DNA of 41,298 bases from an uncultured Candidatus Saccharibacteria bacterium (GTDB taxonomy: Bacteria > Patescibacteriota > Minisyncoccia > Phycocordibacterales > WO2-35-19). A program made the translations under genes and the position numbers. The notes under the pieces were generated by a model. That model was not told the DNA's origin and did no database searches. It saw only the letters and a program-made list of their open reading frames with translations. Shown here piece after piece: positions 595-19,401 of this stretch. The first letter of the stretch is position 1; each line of letters opens with the position of its first letter. Location of the stretch: NCBI GenBank assembly GCA_964455485.1, contig CAYVXT010000003.1, forward strand, positions 1 through 41,298, read 5' to 3'.

Positions 595-740
595 TGGGGG
601 CAGGAGAGAAGTCTTGATCCTTACAGGATCTGTACACCTTTCGTATCGTACTCACCTTCGCCATGCTCAGGTTTTGTGCGATTTACTCAAGGTCTTCAAG
701 TCCTCCCACGCAAGCAAAGCAGTTTGCTTGCTCTGCCCAC
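595..740 (-). ncRNA. TEC-A: short tRNA-end-capped structured element downstream of tRNA-Leu(TAG)
   Basis: Read on the minus strand it runs GTGGGCAGAG, hairpin GCAAGCAAA-CTGC-TTTGCTTGC, GGGAGGACTTGAAG ... CTCTCCTGCCCCCA. The 3' end copies 11 nt of the tRNA 3' end (598-608 = 780-790). GAGGACTTGAA (reverse complement of 695-705) is the exact reverse complement of the tRNA T-loop plus 3' T-stem, TTCAAGTCCTC. Confidence 0.6.
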
Positions 741-974: not shown

Positions 975-999
975 CTAAGATAATAACATAATTACCTTG

Positions 1000-1140
1000 T
1001 GCCTGGGGTGGGACTCGGTCACAACTCTTTTGTTTTCCAAAAGGTTTCGACCCCGCCTCGCCTGTTTCGTTTTGCTCAACATCGCTCCGGCTTTCTCGTC
1101 CCACTCGCAAAGCAGAGCAGTCTGCTTTGCTCACAGACAT
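1000..1140 (-). ncRNA. TEC-B: short tRNA-end-capped structured element downstream of tRNA-Leu(TAA)
   Basis: On the minus strand it runs ATGTCTGTGA, hairpin GCAAAGCAG-ACTGCT-CTGCTTTGC, GAGTGGGACGAGAA ... GGCGAGGCGGGGTCG, a hairpin, then GTGACCGAGTCCCACCCCAGGCA. A 21-nt exact repeat of the tRNA 3' end and flank is present (997-1017 = 1160-1180). Confidence 0.6.
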
Positions 1141-1161
1141 AAAATTCGCATTGCGAATTTT
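1141..1161 (-). terminator. Hairpin after tRNA-Leu(TAA)
   Basis: AAAATTCGCA-TT-GCGAATTTT palindrome immediately 3' of the tRNA. Confidence 0.55.
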
Positions 1162-1734: not shown

Positions 1735-3214
1735 CCATTATTGTTGCTTGTAGCACATCAATTGGGGCAATTTCAATTTTAGATTCTACCATCAGTCCAA
1801 ACTCGTCTCCTTCCTTGGCATGATCAGCTTTTATTTTTTGAACCTGAAGCTCTTTTATCTTACCTTCACCTATAATTGCGTCTCTTCTAATTATTTTTAC
1901 CGTTGAACCGGTTTTAATTTCACCTTCTTGGACTTTACCACCGATTACTTGTTTGTCTTTATTTTTACTAAATATTCTAAGTACTTTGGCTGAGCCAGTG
2001 ATGACTTCTACTTTTGATATTGGGGTAGCTTCGTCCAACCTTTCTCTTAGAAAGTCCATAAGCTCATAAATTATTCTGAAAGATTTGACTTGTATGTTTT
2101 CTCGCAGTGCAAATGCTTCAGCATTTTTTTCTGTGCTTACATTGAAACCAATAACCAGACTATGCTTTATCTCTGCAGTTTTTATATCATTTTCAGAAAC
2201 TGCACCTATGCCTTTTAAAACTATTTGCGGCCTGATTTTTTCATTACCAATTTTCTTGATTTCATGCTCTACAGCTTCGAGTGATCCGTAAGTATCGGTT
2301 TTTATAATTAGAGGCAGAGTGATCCTTGTATCTGTGTGATCTACATCGGTCTCAGTTTTAGTTGTTTGGGTATTTGCAAATTTAATTGCTTCTTCCTTAT
2401 CAGCAAATGCTCTAAACTCTTGACCCACTCCTGGCATTTTGTCCCATCCTACTATTTCAACTGGGCTTGAGAAGGTTGCGCTATCAATTTGTTTACCTTG
2501 GAAATTATGTATGGAACGTACTTTTGCATATGCACCACTTGCGGCTACAAACATTCCAATTTTTAATAAACCATCTTTTATAATTAGAGTTGCAGATATT
2601 CCTTGTTTAGGATTTAGCTCACTTTCAATAATAAATCCCTCTGCATTTTTAGACGGATCTCCTTTTAAGTCTTCCATGTCAGATTGGAGAATAATAAGTT
2701 CTAACAAATCAGTTATATTGTCACCGGTTTTTGCAGAAACTGCGACGGCTGGTACTGACCCGCCCCAACCTTCAATAAAAACTTCGTTTTCAGCAAGACT
2801 TTGTTTTGTCTTATCTATGTTTGCGCCTGGTTTGTCGATTTTGTTTAGAGCCACAATGAATGGAATGCCATCATTTCTAATGCATGAGAGTGCTTCTATG
2901 GTTTGAGGTTTTACTCCATCATCTGCTGCTACTACAAGTATCGCAATATCTGCAACACTGGCTCCGCGCTCTCGAATCGAACAAAAAGCTTCATGACCAG
3001 GGGTATCCAAAAATGTTATAGTGCGAACATCGTCACCAACTTTGCATTCAGCTTCGTATGCGGAAATATGCTGGGTTATTCCCCCAGCTTCTGAACCTGC
3101 CGTGTTTGACTTTCGGATATAGTCGAGCAAAGTCGACTTGCCGTGGTCAATATGCCCCATTACTACTACCACAGGAGGCCTTTTTATTTGTTTTTCTCCG
3201 TTAGTTATAGCCAT
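1721..3214 (-). CDS. infB: Translation initiation factor IF-2 (short form)
   Basis: GTPase motifs GHIDHGKST and DTPGHEAF, followed by the IF-2 C-terminal domains. Start set at MAITNGEK (3214); the ORF track extends to 3250. Confidence 0.92.
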   Translation of the reverse strand: MAITNGEKQIKRPPVVVVMGHIDHGKSTLLDYIRKSNTAGSEAGGITQHISAYEAECKVGDDVRTITFLDTPGHEAFCSIRERGASVADIAILVVAADDGVKPQTIEALSCIRNDGIPFIVALNKIDKPGANIDKTKQSLAENEVFIEGWGGSVPAVAVSAKTGDNITDLLELIILQSDMEDLKGDPSKNAEGFIIESELNPKQGISATLIIKDGLLKIGMFVAASGAYAKVRSIHNFQGKQIDSATFSSPVEIVGWDKMPGVGQEFRAFADKEEAIKFANTQTTKTETDVDHTDTRITLPLIIKTDTYGSLEAVEHEIKKIGNEKIRPQIVLKGIGAVSENDIKTAEIKHSLVIGFNVSTEKNAEAFALRENIQVKSFRIIYELMDFLRERLDEATPISKVEVITGSAKVLRIFSKNKDKQVIGGKVQEGEIKTGSTVKIIRRDAIIGEGKIKELQVQKIKADHAKEGDEFGLMVESKIEIAPIDVLQATIMVDKK

Positions 3215-3272
3215 AAAGTGAAGTCGTTGACATTCTCGCGTATTATACACTAAATGTGATATTATCCAAATA

Positions 3273-4475
3273 ATGAAAGGTATTAAGAAAAAAACTAAAA
3301 AAGGGAGCCAAAAGACCAGAGTATTTCTGGACTATGCTTCTATTACCCCAGTAGATAGTAGGGTAGGGAAAAGGGTGGCAGAGGTAGAGGAAAAATTTTG
3401 GGCAAACCCATCATCTATACACTCTGAGGGTGAAAGTGCCAAAAATACTTTGGAAGAATCAAAGCGCAAAATTGCTTCTGTGTTGCATTCGCGTTCGAGT
3501 GAAGTTGTGATTACAAGTGGAGGTACTGAATCATTAAACTTGGCTATACTGGGTGTAGTAGCCGCTTTCGAAAAAGATAATGTTGGCGTGCCACACATTA
3601 TTACATCTATTATCGAACATCCTGCAGTACTGGAACCAATAAAATCTTTGGTTAAGTCAGGAAAAGCTGAAGCTTCGTATGTTATGCCAAATGAGTCAGG
3701 TCTCGTGAGTGCTGAATCGGTGGAGAAGGAACTAAGAAAAAATACAGTATTGGTAGCTATTCAACATGCCAATAATGAAATTGGCACAATTCAACCAATT
3801 TCTAAAATTTCTAAATTGGTAAAAAGTTTTAGAGATATTAATAATTCTAATTATCCTTATGTTTTGGCTGATGCCAGCCAAAGTTTTTTATACGAGCATG
3901 TTTCTTTAGAAAGACTGCAAGCTGACCTAATAGTGGTTGATGGTATAAAAGTTTATGGCCCTCGGGGGTCAGGAGTTTTGGTGGTTAGGAGTGGTACTCG
4001 TATTTCCTCATTATATAAAGGTGGTGGTCAGGAGAATGGCTTAAGATCTGGCACTGAAAATGTTGCAGGAGCAGCCGGACTAGCTCTTGCATTAGAAATG
4101 GGCGCTAAAGTACGTGAAGAGGAATCAAAACGTCTTACTAAAATTCGCGACTATTTAATAAAAAGAATATTAGAGGAATTTTCAAATTCATCATTGAATG
4201 GTGATCAAAAAGAGAGGTTGCCAAACAATGCAAACATTTGCTTTTCTGGAAGCGATTCGGAATTTTTAGTTATTCGACTTGATGTGGCAGGTTTTGCGGT
4301 TTCAGCTGCATCTGCTTGTCACGCATTGTCCTTGGAAAATTCTTCTTATGTTATAGATGCATTAGGCAAAAAAGGGTGTGGATCTTCATCACTCCGTTTT
4401 ACTTTTGGACGCCAAACAAAAAAAGCAGATATAGATGCTCTGATTGTGGCACTTCATAAAATAATCAAGCATTAA
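3273..4475 (+). CDS. Cysteine desulfurase (NifS/IscS-type class V aminotransferase)
   Basis: Contains TSGGTESLNL, the RSGTEN motif, a PLP-lysine region GIKVYGPRGSGVL, and an active-site loop SAASAC. Confidence 0.85.
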   Translation: MKGIKKKTKKGSQKTRVFLDYASITPVDSRVGKRVAEVEEKFWANPSSIHSEGESAKNTLEESKRKIASVLHSRSSEVVITSGGTESLNLAILGVVAAFEKDNVGVPHIITSIIEHPAVLEPIKSLVKSGKAEASYVMPNESGLVSAESVEKELRKNTVLVAIQHANNEIGTIQPISKISKLVKSFRDINNSNYPYVLADASQSFLYEHVSLERLQADLIVVDGIKVYGPRGSGVLVVRSGTRISSLYKGGGQENGLRSGTENVAGAAGLALALEMGAKVREEESKRLTKIRDYLIKRILEEFSNSSLNGDQKERLPNNANICFSGSDSEFLVIRLDVAGFAVSAASACHALSLENSSYVIDALGKKGCGSSSLRFTFGRQTKKADIDALIVALHKIIKH

Positions 4476-5444: not shown

Positions 5445-8135
5445 ATGACGCCATTTAACAATTTCACAACAAAAGCAAAGGAGGCAATAAAGCGAGCTCA
5501 TGAGCTCGTAATTGAGCGTGGTCAAAATCATGTTGGTCCGCTCCAACTACTCACTGCACTTATACTGCAAGAAGAGAGCATGGTTGCTTCTATTTTGGAC
5601 CGCATGGAAGTAGATACTATTTTGCTCACCGACTCGCTTATAGAGGCTATGGAGGCAGGCACACAGAGCAATACAGTGGCACCTTCGTACCAAATATATC
5701 TTACCCCTGAGCTTGCCATGATCATAGAACACTCGGCAAAGGTGGCAGCTGGTATGAATGATGAATTTGTATCGACTGAACATTTGTTTATAGCGTGTCT
5801 TGAAGTAGAAAGTCCAGCTCGCCAAATACTTTCGCGATTTAAGATTGAAAAAGAAAAAGTAATGTTCTTGATTCAGGAAATGAAGCAGGGAAGAATGCAA
5901 GAACACAAGGGGCAACCAAGAGCAAAGGCTTTAGTGAAATACACAAGGTCACTAACTAAGCTTGCAAGAGATAACAAACTTGACCCTGTAATTGGACGTG
6001 ACGAAGAAATCTCTCGCATAATCCAAATACTTTCAAGGAGAACAAAAAATAACCCAATACTTATTGGGGAAGCCGGTGTGGGTAAAACTGCTATCGCAGA
6101 AGGCTTGGCTATGCGTGTTGCCACAGGTAATGTGCCTGAGTCTTTGAAAGATAAAGAAATTGTTTCTCTTGATCTCGGGCTTTTAGTTGCTGGTACGAAG
6201 TATCGAGGTGAATTCGAAGAGCGACTAAAAAACATTATCAAGGATATTGAAAAATCTGAAGGTAAAATAATTCTATTTATTGATGAAATCCATACTATAG
6301 TAGGAGCTGGTAGTGCCGAAGGGTCTCTCGACGCTTCAAATATGCTTAAGCCACCTCTAGCTAGAGGTGAGCTTCGAGCTATTGGTGCTACAACTATCAA
6401 AGAATATCAAAAACACATAGAAAAGGATCCTGCTCTCACTAGAAGGTTCCAGCCTGTATATGTAAATGAGCCATCAATTGAGGACGCTATTACAATTTTG
6501 CGCGGTTTAAAGGAAAAGTATGAACTTTATCATGGTGTTCATATTACAGATGATGCTATAAAAGCTGCTGTAAATCTTTCGTCGAGATATATTGCCGATA
6601 GATTTTTGCCTGACAAAGCAGTAGATTTGATAGACGAAGCGGCATCTCATCTCAAAATTTCACTTGAGAATATGCCTCCTATATTGCAGGAAACAAATTC
6701 TAAAATCGTAAAGTTAGAAATAGAACGTGAGGCTCTTAGAAAAGAAGCCGAGGGTAAAAATGTTAAAGCCAAAACTCGACTCGAAGAAATTGAAAAGGAA
6801 ATCGCTGATTTGAAGGAAAAGACTGCCGAGATCGATCTTAAATGGAAGAACGAAAAAGAAACAGTGGGTGAAATCAAACGAATAAAAAAGGAGCTTGAAG
6901 AAGCCCGTCTTGAAGCTGAAGCTGCTGAAGCAAGAGTAGATTTAGGAAAAGCTGCAGAGGTTCGGTATGGCCGAATTCCTACTTTAGAAAAGGAGCTGGA
7001 GGCAAATGTTAAAAAACTCAAAAAACTTCAAAGTTCTCGACGTATTCTAAAAGAAGAAATTACCGAAAACGATATTGCAAATATAGTTGCAAAGTGGACT
7101 GGCATTCCTGTTTTCAGAATGCTTGAAGAGGAAGCTGAGAAGCTATCTAGAATGGAAGATGAGCTTAAGGGCAGGATCGTTGGTCAAAATGAGGCTGTAA
7201 AGAAAATATCTGAAACAATAAAAAGGAGTAGGGCGGGTATTTCTGATCCAAACAAACCAATTGGTTCGTTTATATTCCTTGGGCCAACAGGGGTAGGTAA
7301 AACTGAGCTTACCAAAGCATTAGCAGAGTTTATGTTTAATGATGATAAAGCTTTGATTCGTGTAGACATGTCAGAGTTTATGGAAAAGCATTCTGTTTCT
7401 AAACTCATTGGTTCGCCTCCGGGTTATGTAGGCTATGACGAAGGTGGTGGGCTTACTGAAATGGTGCGTCACAGACCATATTCAATAGTGTTGTTCGATG
7501 AGATTGAAAAGGCACACCCTGAAGTTTTCAATGTGCTTTTGCAAGTACTTGATAACGGTAGGCTCACAGACTCAAAAGGTAGGACAGTAAACTTCAAAAA
7601 TACAATAATAATAATGACCTCAAACATTGGTGCTCAATATATCGATAAAATGGAGAAACTAGGTTTTGGGGACCGAGAGTCAAAGGAAGATGGTGCATAT
7701 GCAAACGTAAAGGATAAAGTCATGGATGCTATGAAAGATTATTTTAGACCAGAATTTCTAAACCGTGTTGACGACATTATAATCTTTGATGTTCTCCCAA
7801 TGGAGGCCATAAGAGATATTGTAAAAATTCAAATTAATTTGGTTCGCGACAGACTTGCAATTAAGGAAATTTCAATTGATCTTACTGATGAAGCCTACGA
7901 ATATCTTGCAAGGGAAGGGTATAACCCTCAGTATGGTGCAAGACCACTCAAGCGATTGATTCAAAATAAAATATTAAATCCGATTGCCTCGCTAATTATT
8001 TCGAAAGGCATAATGAAAGGTGGCTTGGTCAGTGTTTCGGTTAAAAATGGCGACCTCGTATTTGATGTTAAAAAAGGAAGGAAGGGCGCAATCATAGAAG
8101 CATCGATACTTAATACTCCCACTCAGGTAGAATAG
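5445..8135 (+). CDS. clpB: ClpB disaggregase (AAA+ chaperone)
   Basis: Clp N-domain, two Walker A sites (GEAGVGKT, GPTGVGKT) and a long coiled-coil middle domain between the two AAA modules. Confidence 0.95.
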   Translation: MTPFNNFTTKAKEAIKRAHELVIERGQNHVGPLQLLTALILQEESMVASILDRMEVDTILLTDSLIEAMEAGTQSNTVAPSYQIYLTPELAMIIEHSAKVAAGMNDEFVSTEHLFIACLEVESPARQILSRFKIEKEKVMFLIQEMKQGRMQEHKGQPRAKALVKYTRSLTKLARDNKLDPVIGRDEEISRIIQILSRRTKNNPILIGEAGVGKTAIAEGLAMRVATGNVPESLKDKEIVSLDLGLLVAGTKYRGEFEERLKNIIKDIEKSEGKIILFIDEIHTIVGAGSAEGSLDASNMLKPPLARGELRAIGATTIKEYQKHIEKDPALTRRFQPVYVNEPSIEDAITILRGLKEKYELYHGVHITDDAIKAAVNLSSRYIADRFLPDKAVDLIDEAASHLKISLENMPPILQETNSKIVKLEIEREALRKEAEGKNVKAKTRLEEIEKEIADLKEKTAEIDLKWKNEKETVGEIKRIKKELEEARLEAEAAEARVDLGKAAEVRYGRIPTLEKELEANVKKLKKLQSSRRILKEEITENDIANIVAKWTGIPVFRMLEEEAEKLSRMEDELKGRIVGQNEAVKKISETIKRSRAGISDPNKPIGSFIFLGPTGVGKTELTKALAEFMFNDDKALIRVDMSEFMEKHSVSKLIGSPPGYVGYDEGGGLTEMVRHRPYSIVLFDEIEKAHPEVFNVLLQVLDNGRLTDSKGRTVNFKNTIIIMTSNIGAQYIDKMEKLGFGDRESKEDGAYANVKDKVMDAMKDYFRPEFLNRVDDIIIFDVLPMEAIRDIVKIQINLVRDRLAIKEISIDLTDEAYEYLAREGYNPQYGARPLKRLIQNKILNPIASLIISKGIMKGGLVSVSVKNGDLVFDVKKGRKGAIIEASILNTPTQVE

Positions 8136-8155
8136 GGTAAATAATTTGAGAGCTA

Positions 8156-8188
8156 CCAAAAAAGCCTTAAAATAAGGCTTTTTTGGTA
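8156..8188 (+). terminator. clpB terminator
   Basis: ACCAAAAAAGCCTTA-AAA-TAAGGCTTTTTTGGT. Confidence 0.75.
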
Positions 8189-8214
8189 ATGTTAAATATT
8201 AAATTAAAAAAGAC

Positions 8215-8243
8215 TTGACAAAAAGTCAAGGATAGTATATACT
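8215..8243 (+). promoter_or_regulatory. Sigma-70-like promoter (TTGACA-N17-TATACT)
   Basis: TTGACA at 8215-8220, a 17-nt spacer, then TATACT at 8238-8243. Confidence 0.6.
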
Positions 8244-8249
8244 TATACA

Positions 8250-8397
8250 AGAAATTAGTTCCGAGTATGACCTCGCTAGAGACTCGTACTATTTCCCGCC
8301 TGAGTCTCTACACAACCCTGCCAGTTTCCTCCCAGACATCTGCTAGGTTTTACTAAGGCGCAAGCCACCCCCCGACTTTGTTTCGGGGGATTTTTTT
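8250..8397 (+). ncRNA. Candidate small RNA of about 150 nt, unassigned
   Basis: It is bracketed by the promoter above and the terminator CCCCCGA-CTTTGTT-TCGGGGG plus T7. It contains a perfect 9-bp helix TAGAGACTC/GAGTCTCTA. It is visibly GC-richer than its flanks. The only ORF is a 30-codon one with no SD. Confidence 0.4.
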
Positions 8398-8452
8398 ATA
8401 AAATTTTAAGTTGATTGAATCGAAAAATATGTTAGATTTGTATATGCATATT

Positions 8453-8536
8453 GCGTCGGTGGTAGAGTGGTCAATTACAACAGACTGTAAATCTGTCGCC
8501 CATCGGGCTACGCAGGTTCGAATCCTGCCCGGCGCA
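8453..8536 (+). tRNA. tRNA-Tyr (anticodon GTA)
   Basis: Acceptor GCGTCGG/CCGGCGC plus A, anticodon loop CTGTAAA, class II variable arm, T-arm GCAGG-TTCGAAT-CCTGC. Confidence 0.9.
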
Positions 8537-8542
8537 CCCAGG

Positions 8543-8566
8543 AAAAACTGCTGCAAAGCAGTTTTT
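8543..8566 (+). terminator. Hairpin plus T-run after tRNA-Tyr
   Basis: AAAAACTGC-TGCAAA-GCAGTTTTTT. Confidence 0.6.
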
Positions 8567-8575
8567 TCTTACCTT

Positions 8576-8811
8576 TGCTCCGGGAGGAAAAGCGTGGGAC
8601 GCTTTTCCGTCAGGATTCGAACGACGGAGAGGGACCCGCTTTAGCAAAAGCGGGAGCGAGTCGGTGCCCAGACCAAAAAAGTTTTGACGAAAACTTTTTG
8701 AGTCGAGGGTGAGCTTGGGGTGGGACCCAAGCGCAAGACTTATTGAGACTGAACAAAGTGAGGTCCAATAAGTAGACAGCTTCTGTAAGAAGAAATTCCT
8801 GCCCGGCGCAC
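8576..8811 (+). ncRNA. TEC-Tyr-L: long tRNA-end-capped structured RNA (group-I-intron-like core?)
   Basis: 5' TGCTCCGGG pairs with 3' CCCGGCGCA. CAGGATTCGAAC (8611-8622) is the reverse complement of GTTCGAATCCTG in tRNA-Tyr. Three hairpins have compensated stems relative to the 39.1-kb copy. The last 15 nt (8797-8811) are identical to tRNA-Tyr 8523-8537. Confidence 0.65.
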
Positions 8812-8850
8812 AGGAAAAAATCGCATTGGCGGTTTTTCTTGTGCGCCGGG
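8802..8850 (+). repeat. Long inverted repeat using the duplicated tRNA-Tyr acceptor strand
   Basis: CCCGGCGCACAGGAAAAAATCGC-ATTG-GCGGTTTTTCTTGTGCGCCGGG. Confidence 0.6.
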
Positions 8851-8927
8851 CGAGTAGCTTCGATGATCAAATCGAAGCGTTACATAGGATTCGAAAGGTG
8901 GAAGAAATTTTTCAGCAGAAAAATTTC
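8848..8927 (+). ncRNA. TEC-2: 3'-truncated short element
   Basis: Hairpin GCTTCGAT-GATCAA-ATCGAAGC, then ATAGGATTCGAAAGGTGG, then hairpin AAATTTTTC-AGCA-GAAAAATTT. This matches the layout of TEC-Asn-S (38160-38291) but lacks the 3' tRNA-like end. Confidence 0.45.
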
Positions 8928-8951
8928 CTAAAAAATTGCTATAATAATAAA

Positions 8952-9620
8952 ATGGAGGAACTACCAAGCAATAATCAAGATAATTTGCCCGTGTCTGAAG
9001 AATGGGAAGGTAATGACACCTTTAATAATTCTGAAAATAATAACGACAACTACGCTGAGAGTTATAATACTGCAGATTATGCCAATAAACTTTCAGAACA
9101 TCTTCTTGGTCTAAAAACCAATGACCCTAAAATAGTAGAGAGGCTTATAGAGGACCAAAATATAATAAGAGCTAAATATAATCTGCCTCCACGCAAAGCT
9201 ATTTCAAATTTACCAGAATATGAACGCTTATTGAGAAATATTGCCCAATCTATTGGTGTCTCGATAAAAGAAAAATCAGAGTGTGGAAAATTTTTTGAAG
9301 AAAACTCAGTAGGAGGAGTTCATTTCGAAAATGACAATAAAATAGGAGTTAACATAAACAAGAATACAAAACAAAGTTATACCAATAGTTTAAACTCTCT
9401 TGAACATGAACTAATCCATGCTTTACAACATCACTTTTCCCCCAGAATGCCAATTGAACTTATGGAATACGAGGCATATATTGCCGGTGGTAATAATGAA
9501 TTCTTAAGAGAAAGTCCAGAAGGAGTTGAAGTGGTTTTTAGTGATCTAATCGGTGCCTCCATAAGATGGTGGTATTCACAAGAGAGCAAAAATAAAGGCG
9601 AAACAAATTCACCTGACTGA
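8952..9620 (+). CDS. Hypothetical protein with an HExxH zinc-metallopeptidase-like motif
   Basis: Start moved to MEELPSNN, because the upstream part of the tracked ORF covers TEC RNA. The motif LEHELIHALQH is present. The N-terminus is low-complexity and rich in N/D/E. Confidence 0.6.
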   Translation: MEELPSNNQDNLPVSEEWEGNDTFNNSENNNDNYAESYNTADYANKLSEHLLGLKTNDPKIVERLIEDQNIIRAKYNLPPRKAISNLPEYERLLRNIAQSIGVSIKEKSECGKFFEENSVGGVHFENDNKIGVNINKNTKQSYTNSLNSLEHELIHALQHHFSPRMPIELMEYEAYIAGGNNEFLRESPEGVEVVFSDLIGASIRWWYSQESKNKGETNSPD

Positions 9621-9682
9621 CTATCACCACCTGAACACTGATATATTCGGTAAATGTAGATTGACCCAACTTTTCATCAACT

Positions 9683-9748
9683 CAGTTCTAACGTGATCCA
9701 GTGCCCCACACCAAAATAAAAAACATGTTTTGGAATAAATTCCTGCCC
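9683..9748 (+). repeat. Degenerate or deleted TEC copy at the left edge of the GC-rich island
   Basis: CAGTTCTAAC (9683-9692) resembles the AAGTTCTAAC junction motif. AAATTCCTGCCC (9737-9748) is identical to the last core nucleotides plus the start of the tRNA-Tyr copy in TEC-Tyr-L (8793-8804). Confidence 0.5.
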
Positions 9749-9808
9749 TCTAAAATCTTGTTTTAATTGAAGTTCAGAATAGCTAAACACCCTTATTTTT
9801 AGGTCCCC

Positions 9809-9837
9809 TTTACACCCATTGACTTTTAGTGTATAAT
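9809..9837 (+). promoter_or_regulatory. Promoter TTTACA-N17-TATAAT for the 9871 cassette
   Basis: TTTACA at 9809-9814 and TATAAT at 9832-9837. AAGGAG lies 7 nt before the ATG. Confidence 0.6.
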
Positions 9838-9870
9838 TTGCTATTCTTATCTTAGAAAAGGAGCATACAC

Positions 9871-10371
9871 ATGACGACACTTCAGGTGTGGAAGAAGGTC
9901 CCGACGATCAAAGGTGCCTCCAGAATGAAAGAGTTGATTGCGATTGTAGGAAAAAGCTGTGTCATCAGACCGGCAGCACGAGAGTTGTGCGAGCGAGTAG
10001 AGGAAAAATTCTCGCTTCCAGCCGGCGACACCAGCGTAGCTCTTCTCTCGATGGCGGATCTTGGCTTCAGCCAGGGTGTGCCATTCTACGAGTTCTACGA
10101 TCGCGCTGCGGAACAGGGCTACCAACTCTGCACTCCCGAAGTGGGATTGCTGATCAGGAAAGCCTTCAGTAAAGGAGAGCAGCACTCCCGTCCCGACCGC
10201 AGTTTCCGTTGCATTTATGTGGCAATGGAACCTGTCGAAATCGGTATCGGCGAAACCGCTGTCCTTTCGTTGGAAGTCACCGACACCGAAGCTGAATTAC
10301 GTGCGGCACGATGTATGCCGCAGACAGCTTTCGGACCGTCGGAGAAGTGGGCTTTCAAGGTTCCTGCTTAA
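9871..10371 (+). CDS. Hypothetical protein (GC-rich cassette)
   Basis: 166-aa ORF with a strong SD. No recognisable motif. Confidence 0.6.
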   Translation: MTTLQVWKKVPTIKGASRMKELIAIVGKSCVIRPAARELCERVEEKFSLPAGDTSVALLSMADLGFSQGVPFYEFYDRAAEQGYQLCTPEVGLLIRKAFSKGEQHSRPDRSFRCIYVAMEPVEIGIGETAVLSLEVTDTEAELRAARCMPQTAFGPSEKWAFKVPA

Positions 10372-10492
10372 GATCCTTAAACTGGGGCCAGTTTCGGCTG
10401 GCCCTCCTACCAGAGTTTTTCAGAAATGGAGAATTGCGGTGGGAGACTGCAAATCCCTAAATCTCAGATCTGTACTTTCAAAGGAGAAAGTC

Positions 10493-10840
10493 GTGAGCTT
10501 ACTTAGTCGATTGATCTACATGTATTTCCGCATCGCACTCTTCTTCGGAAGAGAGATGCACGTCTACAACGTGAGCAGCCGCTGGGGCTCGAGGACTGAC
10601 AGGATTCCGCATCGCTACAACGCGGCGTGGGAAATCCAGAAGGTTCTGGAGAAGAAGGGTTGGCCCCGCTGTGCGTTCTGTGGCTGGGTAACCAAGGAGT
10701 TCGACGAGCACCTCAAAACGGGCGAAGGATACTGCTACCAGCAGTCCATCGGCAACCCCGGAGTGCCGTGGGATCAGGAACCTGACCCACAGCTCTCCTA
10801 CGACAAGATGCCTGATCGGCTCCGTCACTGGCCGGCGTAG
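10493..10840 (+). CDS. Hypothetical Cys-containing protein (GC-rich cassette)
   Basis: The GTG start follows AAAGGAGAAAGTC. The in-frame upstream part of the tracked ORF lacks an SD. A CAFCGW motif is present. Confidence 0.5.
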   Translation: MSLLSRLIYMYFRIALFFGREMHVYNVSSRWGSRTDRIPHRYNAAWEIQKVLEKKGWPRCAFCGWVTKEFDEHLKTGEGYCYQQSIGNPGVPWDQEPDPQLSYDKMPDRLRHWPA

Positions 10841-10945
10841 AAGTTCTTTCTTGGGCGAGTCAGAAATGATTCGCCCTTCCATCAAAGTATTTTTCTTTAA
10901 GAATATTTTGATGGGAGTAAAATCCGAGTTCTTTAGGAGATGAAT

Positions 10946-11161
10946 ATGGCAAATTACGAAGTTTGGTATACGGAAATTCGATACCGTGACCAAACACGCA
11001 CCTGGATGACTTCTTCTGATCGAAAGTCGACTCCTTTCGAGGAGTCGAGCGATGAGAAAGCGAGAGAGATCGCAAAAGCGCTCATGAACGCGCCGAGCGA
11101 TGATCCTCTTGTAGACAGGAGAATTCCTATTAAGCTCGTGAAAGTCATTGAGATCATGTAA
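10946..11161 (+). CDS. Hypothetical small protein (GC-rich cassette)
   Basis: AGGAG lies 6 nt upstream of the second ATG. The ORF is about 71 aa. Confidence 0.5.
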   Translation: MANYEVWYTEIRYRDQTRTWMTSSDRKSTPFEESSDEKAREIAKALMNAPSDDPLVDRRIPIKLVKVIEIM

Positions 11162-11175
11162 AAAGGAGCAGGACA

Positions 11176-11616
11176 ATGAAGCAAACTCTTATTCTGACTT
11201 ACAATCGGGTTCAGGGGTTCGCTCCTGGCTCGCACGGCAATGATCGCGTTGTGATCCACAAGATCGACAAAGACGCTTTCACCGAAGAAAACTACGAGAA
11301 GGCGACAGCGGCACTCCGAGCTCAGGTTTCCGTGAGTAATCCACTCGAAACTGAAGCCTACGTGTATCTGGGTTATTCGGGAGGAGAAGAGCAATACTCC
11401 CACTTGCAACGCAGGGTATTCAGAGCAGCGACAGAAACCGTCCTGGCCTTGATAAAGGAAAGGGCCCGTATTCATATTGTTGGCTGCACCTGCTTCAGCA
11501 CCAGCAAGCGGGAGTTCACTGAAGCTAGTGGCTTTGACTACATTGAAAGCAAAGAGTGTGGTGGCCATCTGAAGCTCGGCAAAATTGTCAGTGAGATTCT
11601 CAAGACTACTGCTTAG
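11176..11616 (+). CDS. Hypothetical protein (GC-rich cassette)
   Basis: AAAGGAG SD, 146-aa ORF, followed by a terminator. Confidence 0.6.
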   Translation: MKQTLILTYNRVQGFAPGSHGNDRVVIHKIDKDAFTEENYEKATAALRAQVSVSNPLETEAYVYLGYSGGEEQYSHLQRRVFRAATETVLALIKERARIHIVGCTCFSTSKREFTEASGFDYIESKECGGHLKLGKIVSEILKTTA

Positions 11617-11624
11617 ATTTACAA

Positions 11625-11668
11625 CCGCCCACACCGGGACAAAATCCGGTGGAGGGCGGATTTTGTTT
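11625..11668 (+). terminator. Terminator of the 9871-11616 cassette operon
   Basis: CCGCCCACACCGG...CCGGTGGAGGGCGG followed by ATTTTGTTT. Confidence 0.7.
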
Positions 11669-11890
11669 ATTATACTGGCCGGTCACCGGCAAGTACGGGT
11701 TGTACATCGGACTCTCTGTCTGGACTGCGGGGTTATTCACCTGGTTCTGGGCAGTGCATCGGTCGTTTTGCATCACGAGAACAGCATAATGTTTTCGAAA
11801 CCGCTTTGGGAGTCGCTCGACCCTCGGGCGGCTTTCTTCATATCTGAATTATTATCAAACTAGTTCCAACGCTACACCGGACAATACACC

Positions 11891-12240
11891 AAAAAATAAA
11901 CCGCCATGTTGATGGCGGTTGCGAAAGGCGAGCGAGATGAAGTTCTTTGTCGGCCAACTACAATAAAAAGTTATAAAAATTTATATTTTAACTTTTCATT
12001 TTCATTAACCTGGTGTGGGTCTGCGCCCCTGCTATGTATGCTTACATAGTTTCGTTCAGCTTCGGCGCATTTGGGGTCTTAACCTTGTGTGCTGTTGGTA
12101 CGTCCATCGAACTAAGCTTTGCGATTAGGAAGGTCAATCCCAACCATACGTTCCTATTTCAAATCGGTCCTCACACACCACACTCGAGAGTTCTTTTCCT
12201 CTTTTCGTTCTTCTCTCGCCTTGACTCGTAAGAAGTCATT
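11891..12240 (-). ncRNA. Candidate non-coding transcript of about 350 nt, unassigned
   Basis: Minus-strand promoter TTGACT (12275-12270), N17, TATAAG (12252-12247). Minus-strand terminator AACCGCCATCAACATGGCGGTT plus TTATTTTTT near 11891-11920. No ORF above about 25 codons has an SD. Confidence 0.35.
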
Positions 12241-12336
12241 AATTTACTTATAACTTATTTTATATATAAAGTCAATCTAGTAAAGTAGTTTATACTTTTA
12301 AATATAATAAACTGAATAACTTTCGAACTGTTTTAT

Positions 12337-16451: not shown

Positions 16452-16628
16452 ATGTTTTCCTTTCTCAAAAAAAAGAATACTGACATAAGAAAAGTTGCGG
16501 AAAAGCAACTTAGTGAAAATGTATTAGTTATAAAATCTCTCCGTGATTATGATACAGGTAAAAAGGACATTTCAACCGCTGATATTGAAAGACGTATGTC
16601 AGATATACAAACTGCTTCACGAACATAA
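16452..16628 (+). CDS. Small ORF upstream of and overlapping doc (putative antitoxin)
   Basis: The ATG lies about 10 nt after a TATAAT (16437-16442), so the mRNA may be leaderless. The ORF is 58 aa and its 3' end overlaps the doc ORF by 86 nt in another frame. Confidence 0.4.
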   Translation: MFSFLKKKNTDIRKVAEKQLSENVLVIKSLRDYDTGKKDISTADIERRMSDIQTASRT

Positions 16629-16965
16629 ATTCGTATCATTTGCTCTTAATCTCGAATCCGAATCAAAGATAGATGCTATTATTACCAATATCAATGGTAG
16701 TAATTTTGATGTAGAAAACTATAAGACCATAGAAGAGAAGTCTGTTGCTTATCTATTCTTCATAATCAAAGACCATCCTTTTATCGATGGTAACAAAAGA
16801 ACCTCAGTATTAGTATTTAAAGTTATTTGTGCGCTAAATAATATCTCCCCTGATCCAGAAATCCCATTGGATGCATTGGCTGTATATATTGAGGAACATA
16901 AAGACAAAGATCATCATGTTTTTATTAAAGCTTTGGCAACTTTTCTTTTTGATAAAAAGTCATAA
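16543..16965 (+). CDS. Doc/Fic-family toxin
   Basis: HPFIDGNKRT matches the Doc variant of the Fic motif HxFx(D/N)(A/G)NKR. Confidence 0.8.
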   Translation: MIMIQVKRTFQPLILKDVCQIYKLLHEHKFVSFALNLESESKIDAIITNINGSNFDVENYKTIEEKSVAYLFFIIKDHPFIDGNKRTSVLVFKVICALNNISPDPEIPLDALAVYIEEHKDKDHHVFIKALATFLFDKKS

Positions 16966-19229: not shown

Positions 19230-19296
19230 GTTAAATCAAAAACCAATTAAATCAAAATCATTGATTTTAAGGTGTTTTTCATTATAATGAGAAACA

Positions 19297-19367
19297 TGCC
19301 GGAGTGGATAAAAAGCAAACTGCTTTGCTTTTTATCCGAGCGTAGCGAGGTGGCCGACACTCTGGCA
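19297..19367 (+). ncRNA. TEC-F: minimal 71-nt element upstream of tRNA-Leu(CAA)
   Basis: TGCCGGAGTGG copies the tRNA 5' end (the 12-nt repeat 19296-19307 = 19400-19411). It is followed by hairpin AAAAAGCAAA-CTGC-TTTGCTTTTT, then CCGAGCGTAGCGAGGTGGCCGA, then CACTCTGGCA, which is complementary to the 5' copy. Confidence 0.5.
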
Positions 19368-19401
19368 TTATAGTAAAAATACTATAGTATATTTTTACAA
19401 T

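Follow-up and report, generated by a model that had tools for sequence, protein, structure and literature searches.

What kind of sequence follows the tRNA-Tyr gene of the window (the whole stretch of DNA that was analysed, 41,298 nt from an uncultured Candidatus Saccharibacteria bacterium), and why does it end in a second copy of the 3' part of that gene? The first-pass annotation had described there a structured RNA with tRNA-like ends and had listed several possible functions, among which the footprint of a tRNA-targeting mobile element fits best; roles as decoy, enzyme substrate, or ribozyme are conceivable as well. With a probability of about one half, the 236 nt behind tRNA-Tyr belong to a superfamily of structured insertion elements that are small and encode no protein, the Tyr copy being a composite of type A and type D; the elements would be non-autonomous and would target the flanks of tRNA genes in Paceibacteria (CPR). 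The family is apparently undescribed and consists of protein-less folded elements at tRNA gene ends of Patescibacteria, with the layout tRNA, terminator hairpin, left arm, one or two folded cores, and right arm (Table 1).

Table 1. Features of the tRNA-Tyr locus and further copies of the superfamily in the window.
Feature	Position	Strand	Basis
tRNA-Tyr (GTA)	8453-8537	+	ARAGORN (end 8536/8540 by method); Rfam tRNA model, 60.6 bits
Direct repeat, copy 1 (final 15 nt of tRNA-Tyr)	8523-8537	+	Repeat family
Palindromic terminator-like hairpin followed by T-run; spacer between tRNA and element	8540-8569	+	Inverted repeat; terminator scan (8550-8562)
Left arm part 1 (X'), antisense to an acceptor 3' strand	8576-8584	+	Sequence, blast
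Optional hairpin splitting the two left-arm parts	8586-8608	+	Inverted repeat; copy comparison
Left arm part 2 (T'), exact antisense of tRNA-Tyr T-loop and T-stem 3' strand	8611-8622	+	Inverted repeat, 12/12
Type-A core	8622-8709	+	92% identity to 39174-39322; model, 85.6 bits; covariation
Helix P-a, enclosing hairpin hp2	8622-8625 paired with 8660-8663	+	
Hairpin hp2, inside P-a	8631-8657	+	
First box of type-A core, GGTGCCCAGACC	8663-8674	+	
Hairpin hp3, between the boxes	8675-8699	+	
Second box of type-A core, GAGTCGAGGG	8700-8709	+	
Second core module (type D), between type-A core and right arm	8710-8792	+	Alignment to stand-alone type-D cores
Right arm/tail, sense copy of tRNA-Tyr 3' part	8793-8811	+	Repeat copy 2 at 8797-8811; family-wide repeat analysis
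Second terminator-like hairpin	8812-8839 (part of 8812-8851)	+	Inverted repeat
Exact antisense of acceptor strand, after second hairpin	8841-8851	+	Inverted repeat
Truncated second element	8857-8945	+	Repeat family; homologue-built model matches 8881-8945, E = 0.015
Parts of truncated element: hairpin; TAGGATTCGAA; hp2-like hairpin	8857-8878; 8885-8895; 8900-8928	+	
Second composite type-A plus type-D copy, ending in tRNA-Asn 3' part	39092-39329	+	Model, 97.7 bits
Type-B element, immediately after tRNA-Asn and its hairpin	38160-38291	+	Model match 38195-38268
Type-B element after tRNA-Leu(TAA), between direct repeats of TCCCACCCCAGGCAC	998-1161	-	Model match 1004-1107, 33.4 bits
Type-D element after tRNA-Leu(TAG)	595-740	-	
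5'-side version upstream of tRNA-Leu(CAA)	19296-19368	+	

The sequence features on which the first-pass annotation had been built were all recovered. The 15-nt repeat TCCTGCCCGGCGCAC occurs in exact form only at its two positions in the whole window (chance expectation for matches with up to three mismatches, 0.29). Similarly, the antisense T-loop 12-mer CAGGATTCGAAC of left arm part 2 is the exact reverse complement of 8516-8527, and TGCTCCGGG of left arm part 1 pairs, by direct reading of the sequence, with 8802-8810 at eight of nine positions. The truncated second unit carries another AGGATTCGAA (8886-8895), and TATAAT is found at 8940-8945, 7 nt 5' of the ATG (8952) that opens the next ORF. 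A palindrome with 19-nt arms is formed by 8801-8819 and the region 8812-8851 downstream. At the position of the optional hairpin, copy comparison revealed that most copies hold the palindrome AGC..AACTGCTT..GCG, which was found in other contexts too. The type-D module is missing from most type-A copies, for example those of loci L121 and L005; in the Tyr copy, it aligns with stand-alone type-D cores (616-693 of the window, minus strand, and locus L013). Folding of a 241-nt stretch gave z = -8.0 versus shuffled sequences, and the opposite strand (z = -7.7) folds nearly equally well because most hairpins are perfect palindromes. In addition, blast comparison showed that the 13 nt of 8574-8586 are perfectly complementary to 38281-38293, where a different element, situated at tRNA-Asn, has its tail. 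This suggests that the Tyr copy is a recombinant; in that case, the eight-of-nine match to the Tyr tail would reflect acceptor-stem similarity.

Elements of the superfamily flank five of the eight tRNAs of the window. The core of the second composite copy is 92% identical to the Tyr core (39174-39322), yet its arms are Asn-specific, and 39314-39329 repeat 38097-38112 of the tRNA-Asn 3' part. The tail of the type-B element after tRNA-Asn (GAATCCTGCTCCCGGAGCA) is mismatched to the local tRNA. At tRNA-Leu(TAG), the order of parts is X' left arm, AACTGCTT hairpin, T', a different core, and a tail resembling the tRNA 3' part. The 5'-side version at tRNA-Leu(CAA) consists of four parts, namely a sense copy of the 5' end of the tRNA, the AACTGCTT hairpin, a miniature core resembling type A, and an antisense copy; it is situated between a promoter-like site (19261-19288) and the tRNA. 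Apart from these elements, a candidate small RNA was noticed at approximately 8247-8396 of the window, a counterpart of which was not found in the fetched loci.

Homologues elsewhere and linkage to tRNA genes, which the first-pass annotation had proposed to look for, were both found in abundance. At least 117 further stretches with the conserved core were retrieved, nearly all from Paceibacteria (CPR) and with several copies per genome; as the sample was gathered by a pattern that fixed the two boxes, the box invariance and part of the family picture are biased by that search. Among the matches listed, 87 of 120 copies are located 100-300 nt 3' of a tRNA gene on the same strand, and at least 18 tRNA isotypes bear an element. 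Repeats of the tRNA end, 11 to at least 40 nt long and mostly spaced by 135-206 nt, are present in most of these 87 tRNA-linked copies. A census showed a downstream repeat of the tRNA's own 3' part for 60 of 169 tRNAs, compared with one and none in two control searches. Furthermore, unrelated cores (types B, C, and D) have the same outer layout as type A, 5'-side versions exist, and the modules are mosaic among copies, with cores shuffled between them. The supposition that no described RNA class has this layout was borne out as well. With Rfam 15, gathering scores were reached by tRNAs only in the window and 18 loci; the sub-threshold matches in 8150-9000 were weak and were taken as chance (best over the element, E = 0.014 and 19.6 bits versus a gathering score of 69). 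Known RNA families were rejected, since no model matched the element, as was a phage, plasmid, or viral origin, since the phage, plasmid, and viral collections contained no match. Full-text literature searches returned nothing describing the element.

The type-A core, approximately 90 nt long with a conserved three-way junction as its loop, has a fold that is under selection on the tRNA-sense strand, because its internal helices covary strongly. Indeed, 95.5% of the cells in the core helices are paired versus 73.5% in shuffles, and the covariation score is 0.548 versus 0.138 in shuffles and 0.07-0.12 with slid partners. G-U pairs outnumber A-C pairs by 21:10, and tandem G-A pairs are seen on the plus strand only. 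Compensatory change, proposed by the first-pass annotation as a check on its helices, is abundant inside the element and absent from the helix that closes it. Such a core could belong to a family of functional non-coding RNAs capped by a copied T-stem/acceptor helix, acting as decoy, enzyme substrate, or RNP scaffold; this was the main idea of the first-pass annotation. The RNAs would arise from pre-tRNA leaders or from transcription past the terminator, and maturation would rely on RNase P, 3' processing, and the CCA-adding enzyme. This explanation, which we consider unlikely but still a serious alternative, is favoured by the strong covariation, the tandem G-A pairs, and the excess of G-U on the tRNA-sense strand, although the ratio of G-U to A-C of only about 2:1 counts against it. 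Expansion modules and cores in tandem, which many functional RNAs have too, also agree with it, and so does the good closing helix of the Tyr copy.

The arms argue against a functional RNA. Read as its reverse complement, the left arm corresponds to the acceptor 3' strand, T-stem 3' strand, and T-loop of the tRNA, and the right arm repeats this segment directly, from T-loop position 56/57 to the tRNA end or past it; in other copies too, the T' segment tracks the T-loop and T-stem of the cognate tRNA. The tRNA-minihelix mimic of the first-pass annotation stood in so far as an acceptor-like plus T-stem-like closure is possible, as RNA or DNA, but was not supported as the element's functional purpose. 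Just 34 of 72 non-redundant tRNA-linked copies had a recognisable acceptor-antisense arm (at least 6/7), and in 21 the arm was at chance level (at most 4/7). At positions that differ between tRNA and repeat, the left arm is complementary to the tRNA in 56 cases and to the repeat in one, indicating that no compensatory evolution took place in the closing helix. At positions of G-U pairs or mismatches in the tRNA stems, the arm perfectly complements the 3' strand (acceptor stem, 22:2; T stem, 13:1), and the repeat can enter the locus-specific trailer by 30 to at least 40 nt, terminators included, where it has no pairing partner. In view of these four observations, the arms look like gene copies made at installation, and sequence comparison thus indicates that they were copied from the neighbouring gene and not tuned by compensatory change. 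Moreover, no T-loop was found on the sense strand, ARAGORN and Rfam detecting genuine tRNAs only, and the tRNA and tmRNA models were silent on the element.

Conservation and transcription signals point in both directions. The order ClpB, tRNA-Tyr, element is kept across genomes with 64-86% ClpB identity, including those with 64-68%, and this persistence favours a functional RNA. In the comparison of the window with L121 (ClpB 83% identical), the promoter and the terminator spacer were unalignable and the element was nearly identical from left arm to first box, with differences at four positions (two of them in the left arm, one ahead of hp2, and one a compensatory pair within hp2). This favours mobility and turnover and hints at a core much younger than its hosts, which would support horizontal spread; conservation of the element to the same degree as the tRNA itself favours a functional RNA. 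In addition, the 5'-side copy between promoter-like site and tRNA should be transcribed. Against a functional RNA, nearly all 3'-side copies come after a strong terminator and have no promoter ahead of them, and a promoter scan found no promoter-like site in 8540-8811. Also, the elements are sporadic over tRNAs and genomes, and empty sites exist, as is the case for the tRNA-Tyr site of the relative L001.

Returning to the insertion elements, we infer a mobile or selfish module that is non-autonomous. Mobility and turnover are favoured by the empty tRNA-Tyr site of L001, the comparison with L121, the mosaic modules, the outer layout common to unrelated cores, and the 5'-side versions; mobility is reached indirectly, because no enzyme, excised form, or true filled/empty pair of close strains was found. 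Speculatively, installation would take place just past the tRNA terminator (within the leader in the 5' version), anchored in the conserved T-loop, and would duplicate the stretch from T-loop to insertion point and add to it a folded-back copy. One candidate process is template switching via T-loop microhomology, and another is the action of an enzyme encoded elsewhere that would recognise the folded core. The resemblance to a minihelix would be a by-product of target copying, and the element would be carried passively in pre-tRNA leaders or read-through trailers. Template switching might predict core-less fold-backs; core-less fold-back palindromes centred on T-loop sequences were absent from approximately 1 Mb of fetched loci, and an intermediate of this type was rejected. 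The synteny at 64-68% ClpB identity, together with the structural conservation and the expansion modules in streamlined genomes, could mean a host function. We tentatively suggest that the elements may form a new class, either of elements without protein that rewrite their own arms from the target or of tRNA-end-capped RNAs matured by the tRNA machinery, or both.

An improbable explanation is that the elements are decayed attL/attR junctions of integrase-driven islands, either remnant or cis-mobilisable, from which integrase and cargo were lost. Islands are classically marked by a direct repeat of the tRNA 3' part, tRNA-Tyr and tRNA-Asn are each followed by higher-G+C stretches with small unknown genes, and degenerate tRNA-Asn 3' halves (AGTTCTAACATCCTCTATYAARCGGAGC) are repeated in the Asn island. 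Similarly, several loci contain typical island cargo between tRNA and element, the examined cargo comprising AAA_21 ATPase genes, a transglutaminase-like gene, and one IS481 transposase (of the DDE type, in L072, and part of an unrelated insertion sequence); a putative heavy-metal P-type ATPase was noted in a further cargo ORF. However, where cargo is present, a remnant tRNA end plus trailer lies directly 5' of the element, which indicates that the islands arrived later and are not part of it. Neither tyrosine or serine integrase nor integron integrase was found among the window ORFs, and no recombinase domain was found in the examined cargo. Across the 117 loci examined, no protein family was linked to the element and none was common to more than eight, so that a linked integrase, transposase, reverse transcriptase, or TnpB was rejected; the shared families that were traced, ClpB and its syntenic neighbours, are housekeeping genes. 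Att junctions would also have to account for one covarying core of approximately 90 nt at 18 or more tRNA targets, for an inverted arm that is foreign to them, for 5'-side versions, and for repeats that include locus-specific trailers and thereby speak for duplication rather than attP/attB identity.

Very improbable, finally, is a host-encoded cis structure at tRNA genes, such as a reinforced terminator or insulator, a replication-transcription buffer, or a pre-tRNA folding device working by alternative pairing, in which gene conversion would keep the match to each tRNA. Two alternative pairings are available to the antisense arm, with the 3' half of the tRNA (a long palindrome across the terminator) or with the downstream repeat, the arms follow the tRNA and not each other, and hp3 is alike within one genome while hp2 is locus-specific, which suggests concerted evolution; however, the element occurs at only some tRNAs, empty orthologous sites are viable, several unrelated cores share the position, and nothing connects it with downstream gene expression.

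Other identities were rejected. A tmRNA or permuted tmRNA, prompted by the resemblance of AGGATTCGAACGACGG to a tmRNA 5' region and by the short ORF ARLIETEQSEVQ with its stop within 8733-8771, was not reported by ARAGORN or Rfam; the element has no T-arm, is multi-copy, and lacks the ORF segment in most copies. A degenerate tRNA with a T-loop insertion does not agree with a left arm that tracks the antisense of the 3' strand rather than the tRNA 5' strand, nor with a T-loop copy that is antisense even where the loop is non-palindromic. A guide RNA (omega-RNA, bridge RNA, or CAST homing spacer), an idea raised by the conserved scaffold followed by 15-20 variable nt, was discarded as an adjoining nuclease or recombinase gene is absent. 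Kissing of the AACUGCUU loop with the AGCAG loop of hp2 was discarded too, as consistent covariation was not seen on inspection.

Several known systems share some of these properties. Genomic islands and cis-mobilisable elements (CIMEs) enter the 3' ends of tRNA genes by means of tyrosine integrases. As in these, the tRNA 3' part is targeted, a displaced copy of the tRNA 3' end marks the far end, tandem units are possible, and real islands occupy the same tRNAs here. Unlike these, the element has no integrase, its body is a covarying structure of 90-190 nt, one core serves at least 18 tRNA types, the target identity segment is not supplied by the element, and an inverted target copy, trailer-spanning repeats, and 5'-side versions occur. 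Folded single-strand recombination sites are known as integron attC and as the forked hairpin of CTX-phage attP(+). These have in common with the element the order repeat, spacer or cargo, inverted copy, structured loop, and direct copy, a strand-specific fold (here, the plus-strand G-U and G-A bias), a stem that reproduces the target duplex, and a structure kept more than its sequence. They differ in that neither GTTRRRY/RYYYAAC core sites nor dif-like XerCD sites were seen at the element arm ends when the copies were read, and no IntI or Xer link was found; type-A units have no ORF, their loop is a three-way junction and not freely variable, and the target is a tRNA gene. RNAs that mimic tRNA include the tRNA-like domain of tmRNA, YrlA (bacterial Y-RNA-like), viral tRNA-like structures, and mascRNA. 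As in tmRNA, the 5' and 3' ends of the element can stack acceptor and T stem around a larger domain, but the sense strand has no T-loop, tRNA and tmRNA models miss the element, the many copies are each tied to the adjoining tRNA, and the acceptor helix is neither conserved nor covarying. MITE, REP, and BIME sequences are likewise small, multi-copy, ORF-less, hairpin-rich, intergenic, and similar within a genome; in contrast with them, the terminal inverted repeat comes from the target, the arms vary according to the adjoining tRNA, long target duplications of variable length (11 to at least 40 nt) take the place of short, fixed ones, and the elements are strictly associated with tRNA ends. Casposons and Cas1-type integration at tRNA 3' ends give target duplications of 14-15 bp, a length resembling the 15-nt duplication of the Tyr copy at the tRNA gene 3' end, whereas the element has no casposase or polymerase gene, the duplication ranges from 11 to at least 40 nt, and the inverted arm is derived from the target.

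A large part of bacterial diversity belongs to CPR bacteria, and to our knowledge their non-coding repertoire is almost unknown. If mobile, the elements would represent a targeting of tRNA genes that spares the tRNA and copies the target into the element's own ends; we know of no described transposon, integron, or island that does so while leaving the tRNA intact. This would help to account for the strong variation at tRNA flanks, which are hotspots in these reduced genomes. As functional RNAs, the elements would constitute an abundant new class standing one-to-one with tRNAs. For genome annotation, the elements produce partial tRNA copies and long palindromes that confuse predictors of tRNAs, islands, and terminators, and they supply a highly covarying alignment for structural and biochemical work.

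The first-pass annotation had placed a structured tRNA minihelix mimic behind tRNA-Tyr (8576-8811), and its description of the sequence was correct. Indeed, TCCTGCCCGGCGCAC, the final 15 nt of the tRNA gene, had a single further occurrence in the window, an exact copy at 8797-8811; CAGGATTCGAAC (8611-8622) was perfectly antisense to 8516-8527, which comprise the T-loop and the 3' strand of the T-stem; and TGCTCCGGG (8576-8584) formed eight of nine pairs with the repeated acceptor strand. A shorter second unit followed, composed of an exact acceptor-strand antisense (8841-8851), a hairpin, and a further AGGATTCGAA (8886-8895). In addition, the stretch folded far better than its shuffled versions, with z = -8.0 and, for the opposite strand, -7.7. 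The element was preceded by a strong terminator and by no promoter-like site. Between clpB and tRNA-Tyr (8215-8396), about 150 nt of structured non-coding sequence were framed by a promoter-like TTGACA-17-TATACT (8215-8243) on one side and, on the other, by a strong terminator with its T-run (8369-8389); this sequence matched nothing in Rfam, and the fetched related loci lacked a counterpart.

AGGATTCGAA was found near tRNA-Asn too. The core of the second element there (39092-39329) was 92% identical to 8657-8805, but the element terminated in the tRNA-Asn 3' part, TTCCTACCCGCGGAGCC, and it had TAGG where the antisense T segment of the Tyr element has CAGG. Therefore, the core is common to both copies and both arms, the antisense left one and the sense right one, are specific to the adjoining tRNA. 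When run on the window, a homologue-derived covariance model gave five matches (see table). Such an element accompanied five of the eight tRNA genes of the window; the one on the 5' side of tRNA-Leu-CAA lay between a promoter-like site and the tRNA. The type-B element at tRNA-Asn had a tail (...CTCCCGGAGCA; 38273-38291) that did not match the tRNA-Asn of this genome and was a perfect complement of the Tyr element's left arm (8574-8586), a sequence relationship that points to recombination among elements located at different tRNAs. A small palindrome with the loop AACTGCTT, such as AAGCAAACTGCTTTGCTT, recurred inside elements (711-730 on the minus strand, 19309-19335, 39103-39126, and many loci) as well as in the partial tRNA copies that precede tRNA-Leu-CAA and, in the fetched locus L119, tRNA-Ser; it may be an independent mini-insertion.

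Element copies and model matches in the window
Feature	Position	Strand	Score (bits)
tRNA-Tyr(GTA)	8453-8537		
Model match, tRNA-Asn, second element	39125-39240	+	97.7
Model match, tRNA-Tyr	8607-8723	+	85.6
Model match, after tRNA-Leu-TAA	1004-1107	-	33.4
Model match, truncated unit after tRNA-Tyr	8881-8945	+	14.1
Model match, tRNA-Asn, first element	38195-38268	+	13.4
Different-core element after tRNA-Leu-TAG	595-740	-	
Mirror-image version upstream of tRNA-Leu-CAA	19296-19368		

Based on its ClpB (5445-8135), the window belongs to Candidatus Zambryskibacteria (Paceibacterota). Searched for in a single genome of each species, the pattern GGTGCCCAGACC-N15-40-GAGTCGAGGG matched at least 117 stretches. 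Among the matches listed, nearly all originated from Patescibacteria, with multiple copies in several genomes; a same-strand tRNA gene occurred 100-300 nt upstream of 87 of the 120 copies, at least 18 isotypes were represented, and the repeats of the tRNA 3' part ranged in length from 11 to at least 40 nt, with a spacing of mostly 135-206 nt. A census of the fetched DNA retrieved a downstream repeat of the 3' part for 60 of 169 tRNAs, versus 1 and 0 in two control searches. Nothing similar was found in Rfam, phage and plasmid records, viral contigs, or the literature searched. The order of the parts was tRNA, terminator-like palindrome, X' (antisense to the 3' strand of the acceptor stem), a palindrome that is not always present (AGC..AACTGCTT..GCG, known from other contexts too), T', core, and a sense tRNA copy beginning at T-loop position 56/57. 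T', which is antisense to the T-loop and to the 3' strand of the T-stem, tracked the cognate loop, for example GGACTTGAAC beside TTCAAGTCC. The core comprised a 4-bp helix (P-a) around hairpin hp2, followed by box GGTGCCCAGACC, hairpin hp3, and box GAGTCGAGGG, the invariance of both boxes being a product of the search design. Types B, C, and D, which differ in their cores, shared the outer layout, and the core of type D corresponded to an extra 83-nt module in the two type-A copies of the window (8710-8792 and 39227-39309).

Across 100 copies, 95.5% of the predicted core pairs were paired (73.5% in shuffles), the covariation score was 0.548 (0.138 shuffled; 0.07-0.12 with slid partners), and 11 of 20 core pairs displayed changes on both sides. 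G-U exceeded A-C, and tandem G-A pairs occurred on the tRNA-sense strand only; therefore, it is this strand that is folded, as RNA or single-stranded DNA. Such folding is compatible with a functional non-coding RNA capped by the tRNA-like helix, a less probable reading. At G-U or mismatch positions of the tRNA stems, the left arm was perfectly complementary to the 3' strand instead of reproducing the 5' strand, by 22:2 in the acceptor stem and 13:1 in the T stem, and where tRNA and downstream repeat differed, it was complementary to the tRNA 56 times and to the repeat once; drift from the tRNA was similar in amount for each arm. Among 72 copies, the acceptor arm was recognisable in 34 and at chance level in 21, with T-stem parts retained in 53 and 67, and repeats can take in 20-30 nt of locus-specific trailer without any pairing partner. 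Given these counts, the loss of the acceptor arm, and the unpaired trailers, the arms resemble a pair of copies taken from the neighbouring gene segment during installation more than a helix kept for its function.

No recombinase was found in the window, and no protein families accompanied the elements in the fetched loci, among the matches listed. Where tRNA and core were far apart, ordinary island cargo filled the interval, and a remnant tRNA end plus trailer stood directly before the element in these cargo-bearing loci, so the islands arrived later. Decayed integrase att junctions, which the repeated tRNA 3' parts could recall, are improbable. The arrangement of ClpB, tRNA-Tyr, and element recurred at 64-86% ClpB identity, and the tRNA-Tyr site of one relative was empty; a cis-acting host structure at tRNA genes is very improbable. 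When the window was compared with the fetched locus L121, whose ClpB is 83% identical, the promoter and terminator spacer was unalignable and the element almost identical, with four differing positions from left arm to first box, one a compensatory pair; hp3 and the extra module differed, indicating module exchange. The segment with tRNA-Tyr and element was inverted relative to clpB in L005/L006, L019, L121, and L065, compared with the window, L013, and L033.

Stretches of higher G+C content (up to 0.52) followed tRNA-Tyr (9600-12300) and tRNA-Asn (38113-41298), containing small ORFs without Pfam matches, several followed by a terminator-like hairpin, and repeated degenerate tRNA 3' halves; AGTTCTAAC... 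occurred at 9686-9694, 39019-39046, and near 40405, and AAATTCCTGCCC at 9737-9748. This pattern looks like tandem cassette-like islands. A small Fic/DOC-family ORF (16543-16965) lay directly upstream of tRNA-Trp, with unannotated neighbours. In L075 (about 3200-3700), a tRNA-Asn copy adjoining an intact tRNA-Asn was broken behind its anticodon-stem region by a long insert that may be an intron. Upstream of tRNA-Thr in L036, a partial tRNA-Thr 5' fragment preceded sequence of coding appearance, whose product, judged by visual reading, could be a small GIY-YIG-like protein.

The best-supported reading, with a probability of about one half, is a non-autonomous structured element targeting tRNA gene ends. 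Its installation would be anchored at the T-loop, the stretch from there to the insertion point being duplicated and a fold-back copy added; candidate routes are template switching via the conserved T-loop and a trans-acting enzyme that works on the folded core. A search for core-less intermediates found none. The interpretation in the first-pass annotation thus held in part, chiefly through the option it had listed last, the footprint of a mobile element; the minihelix appearance would be a consequence of installation by target copying.
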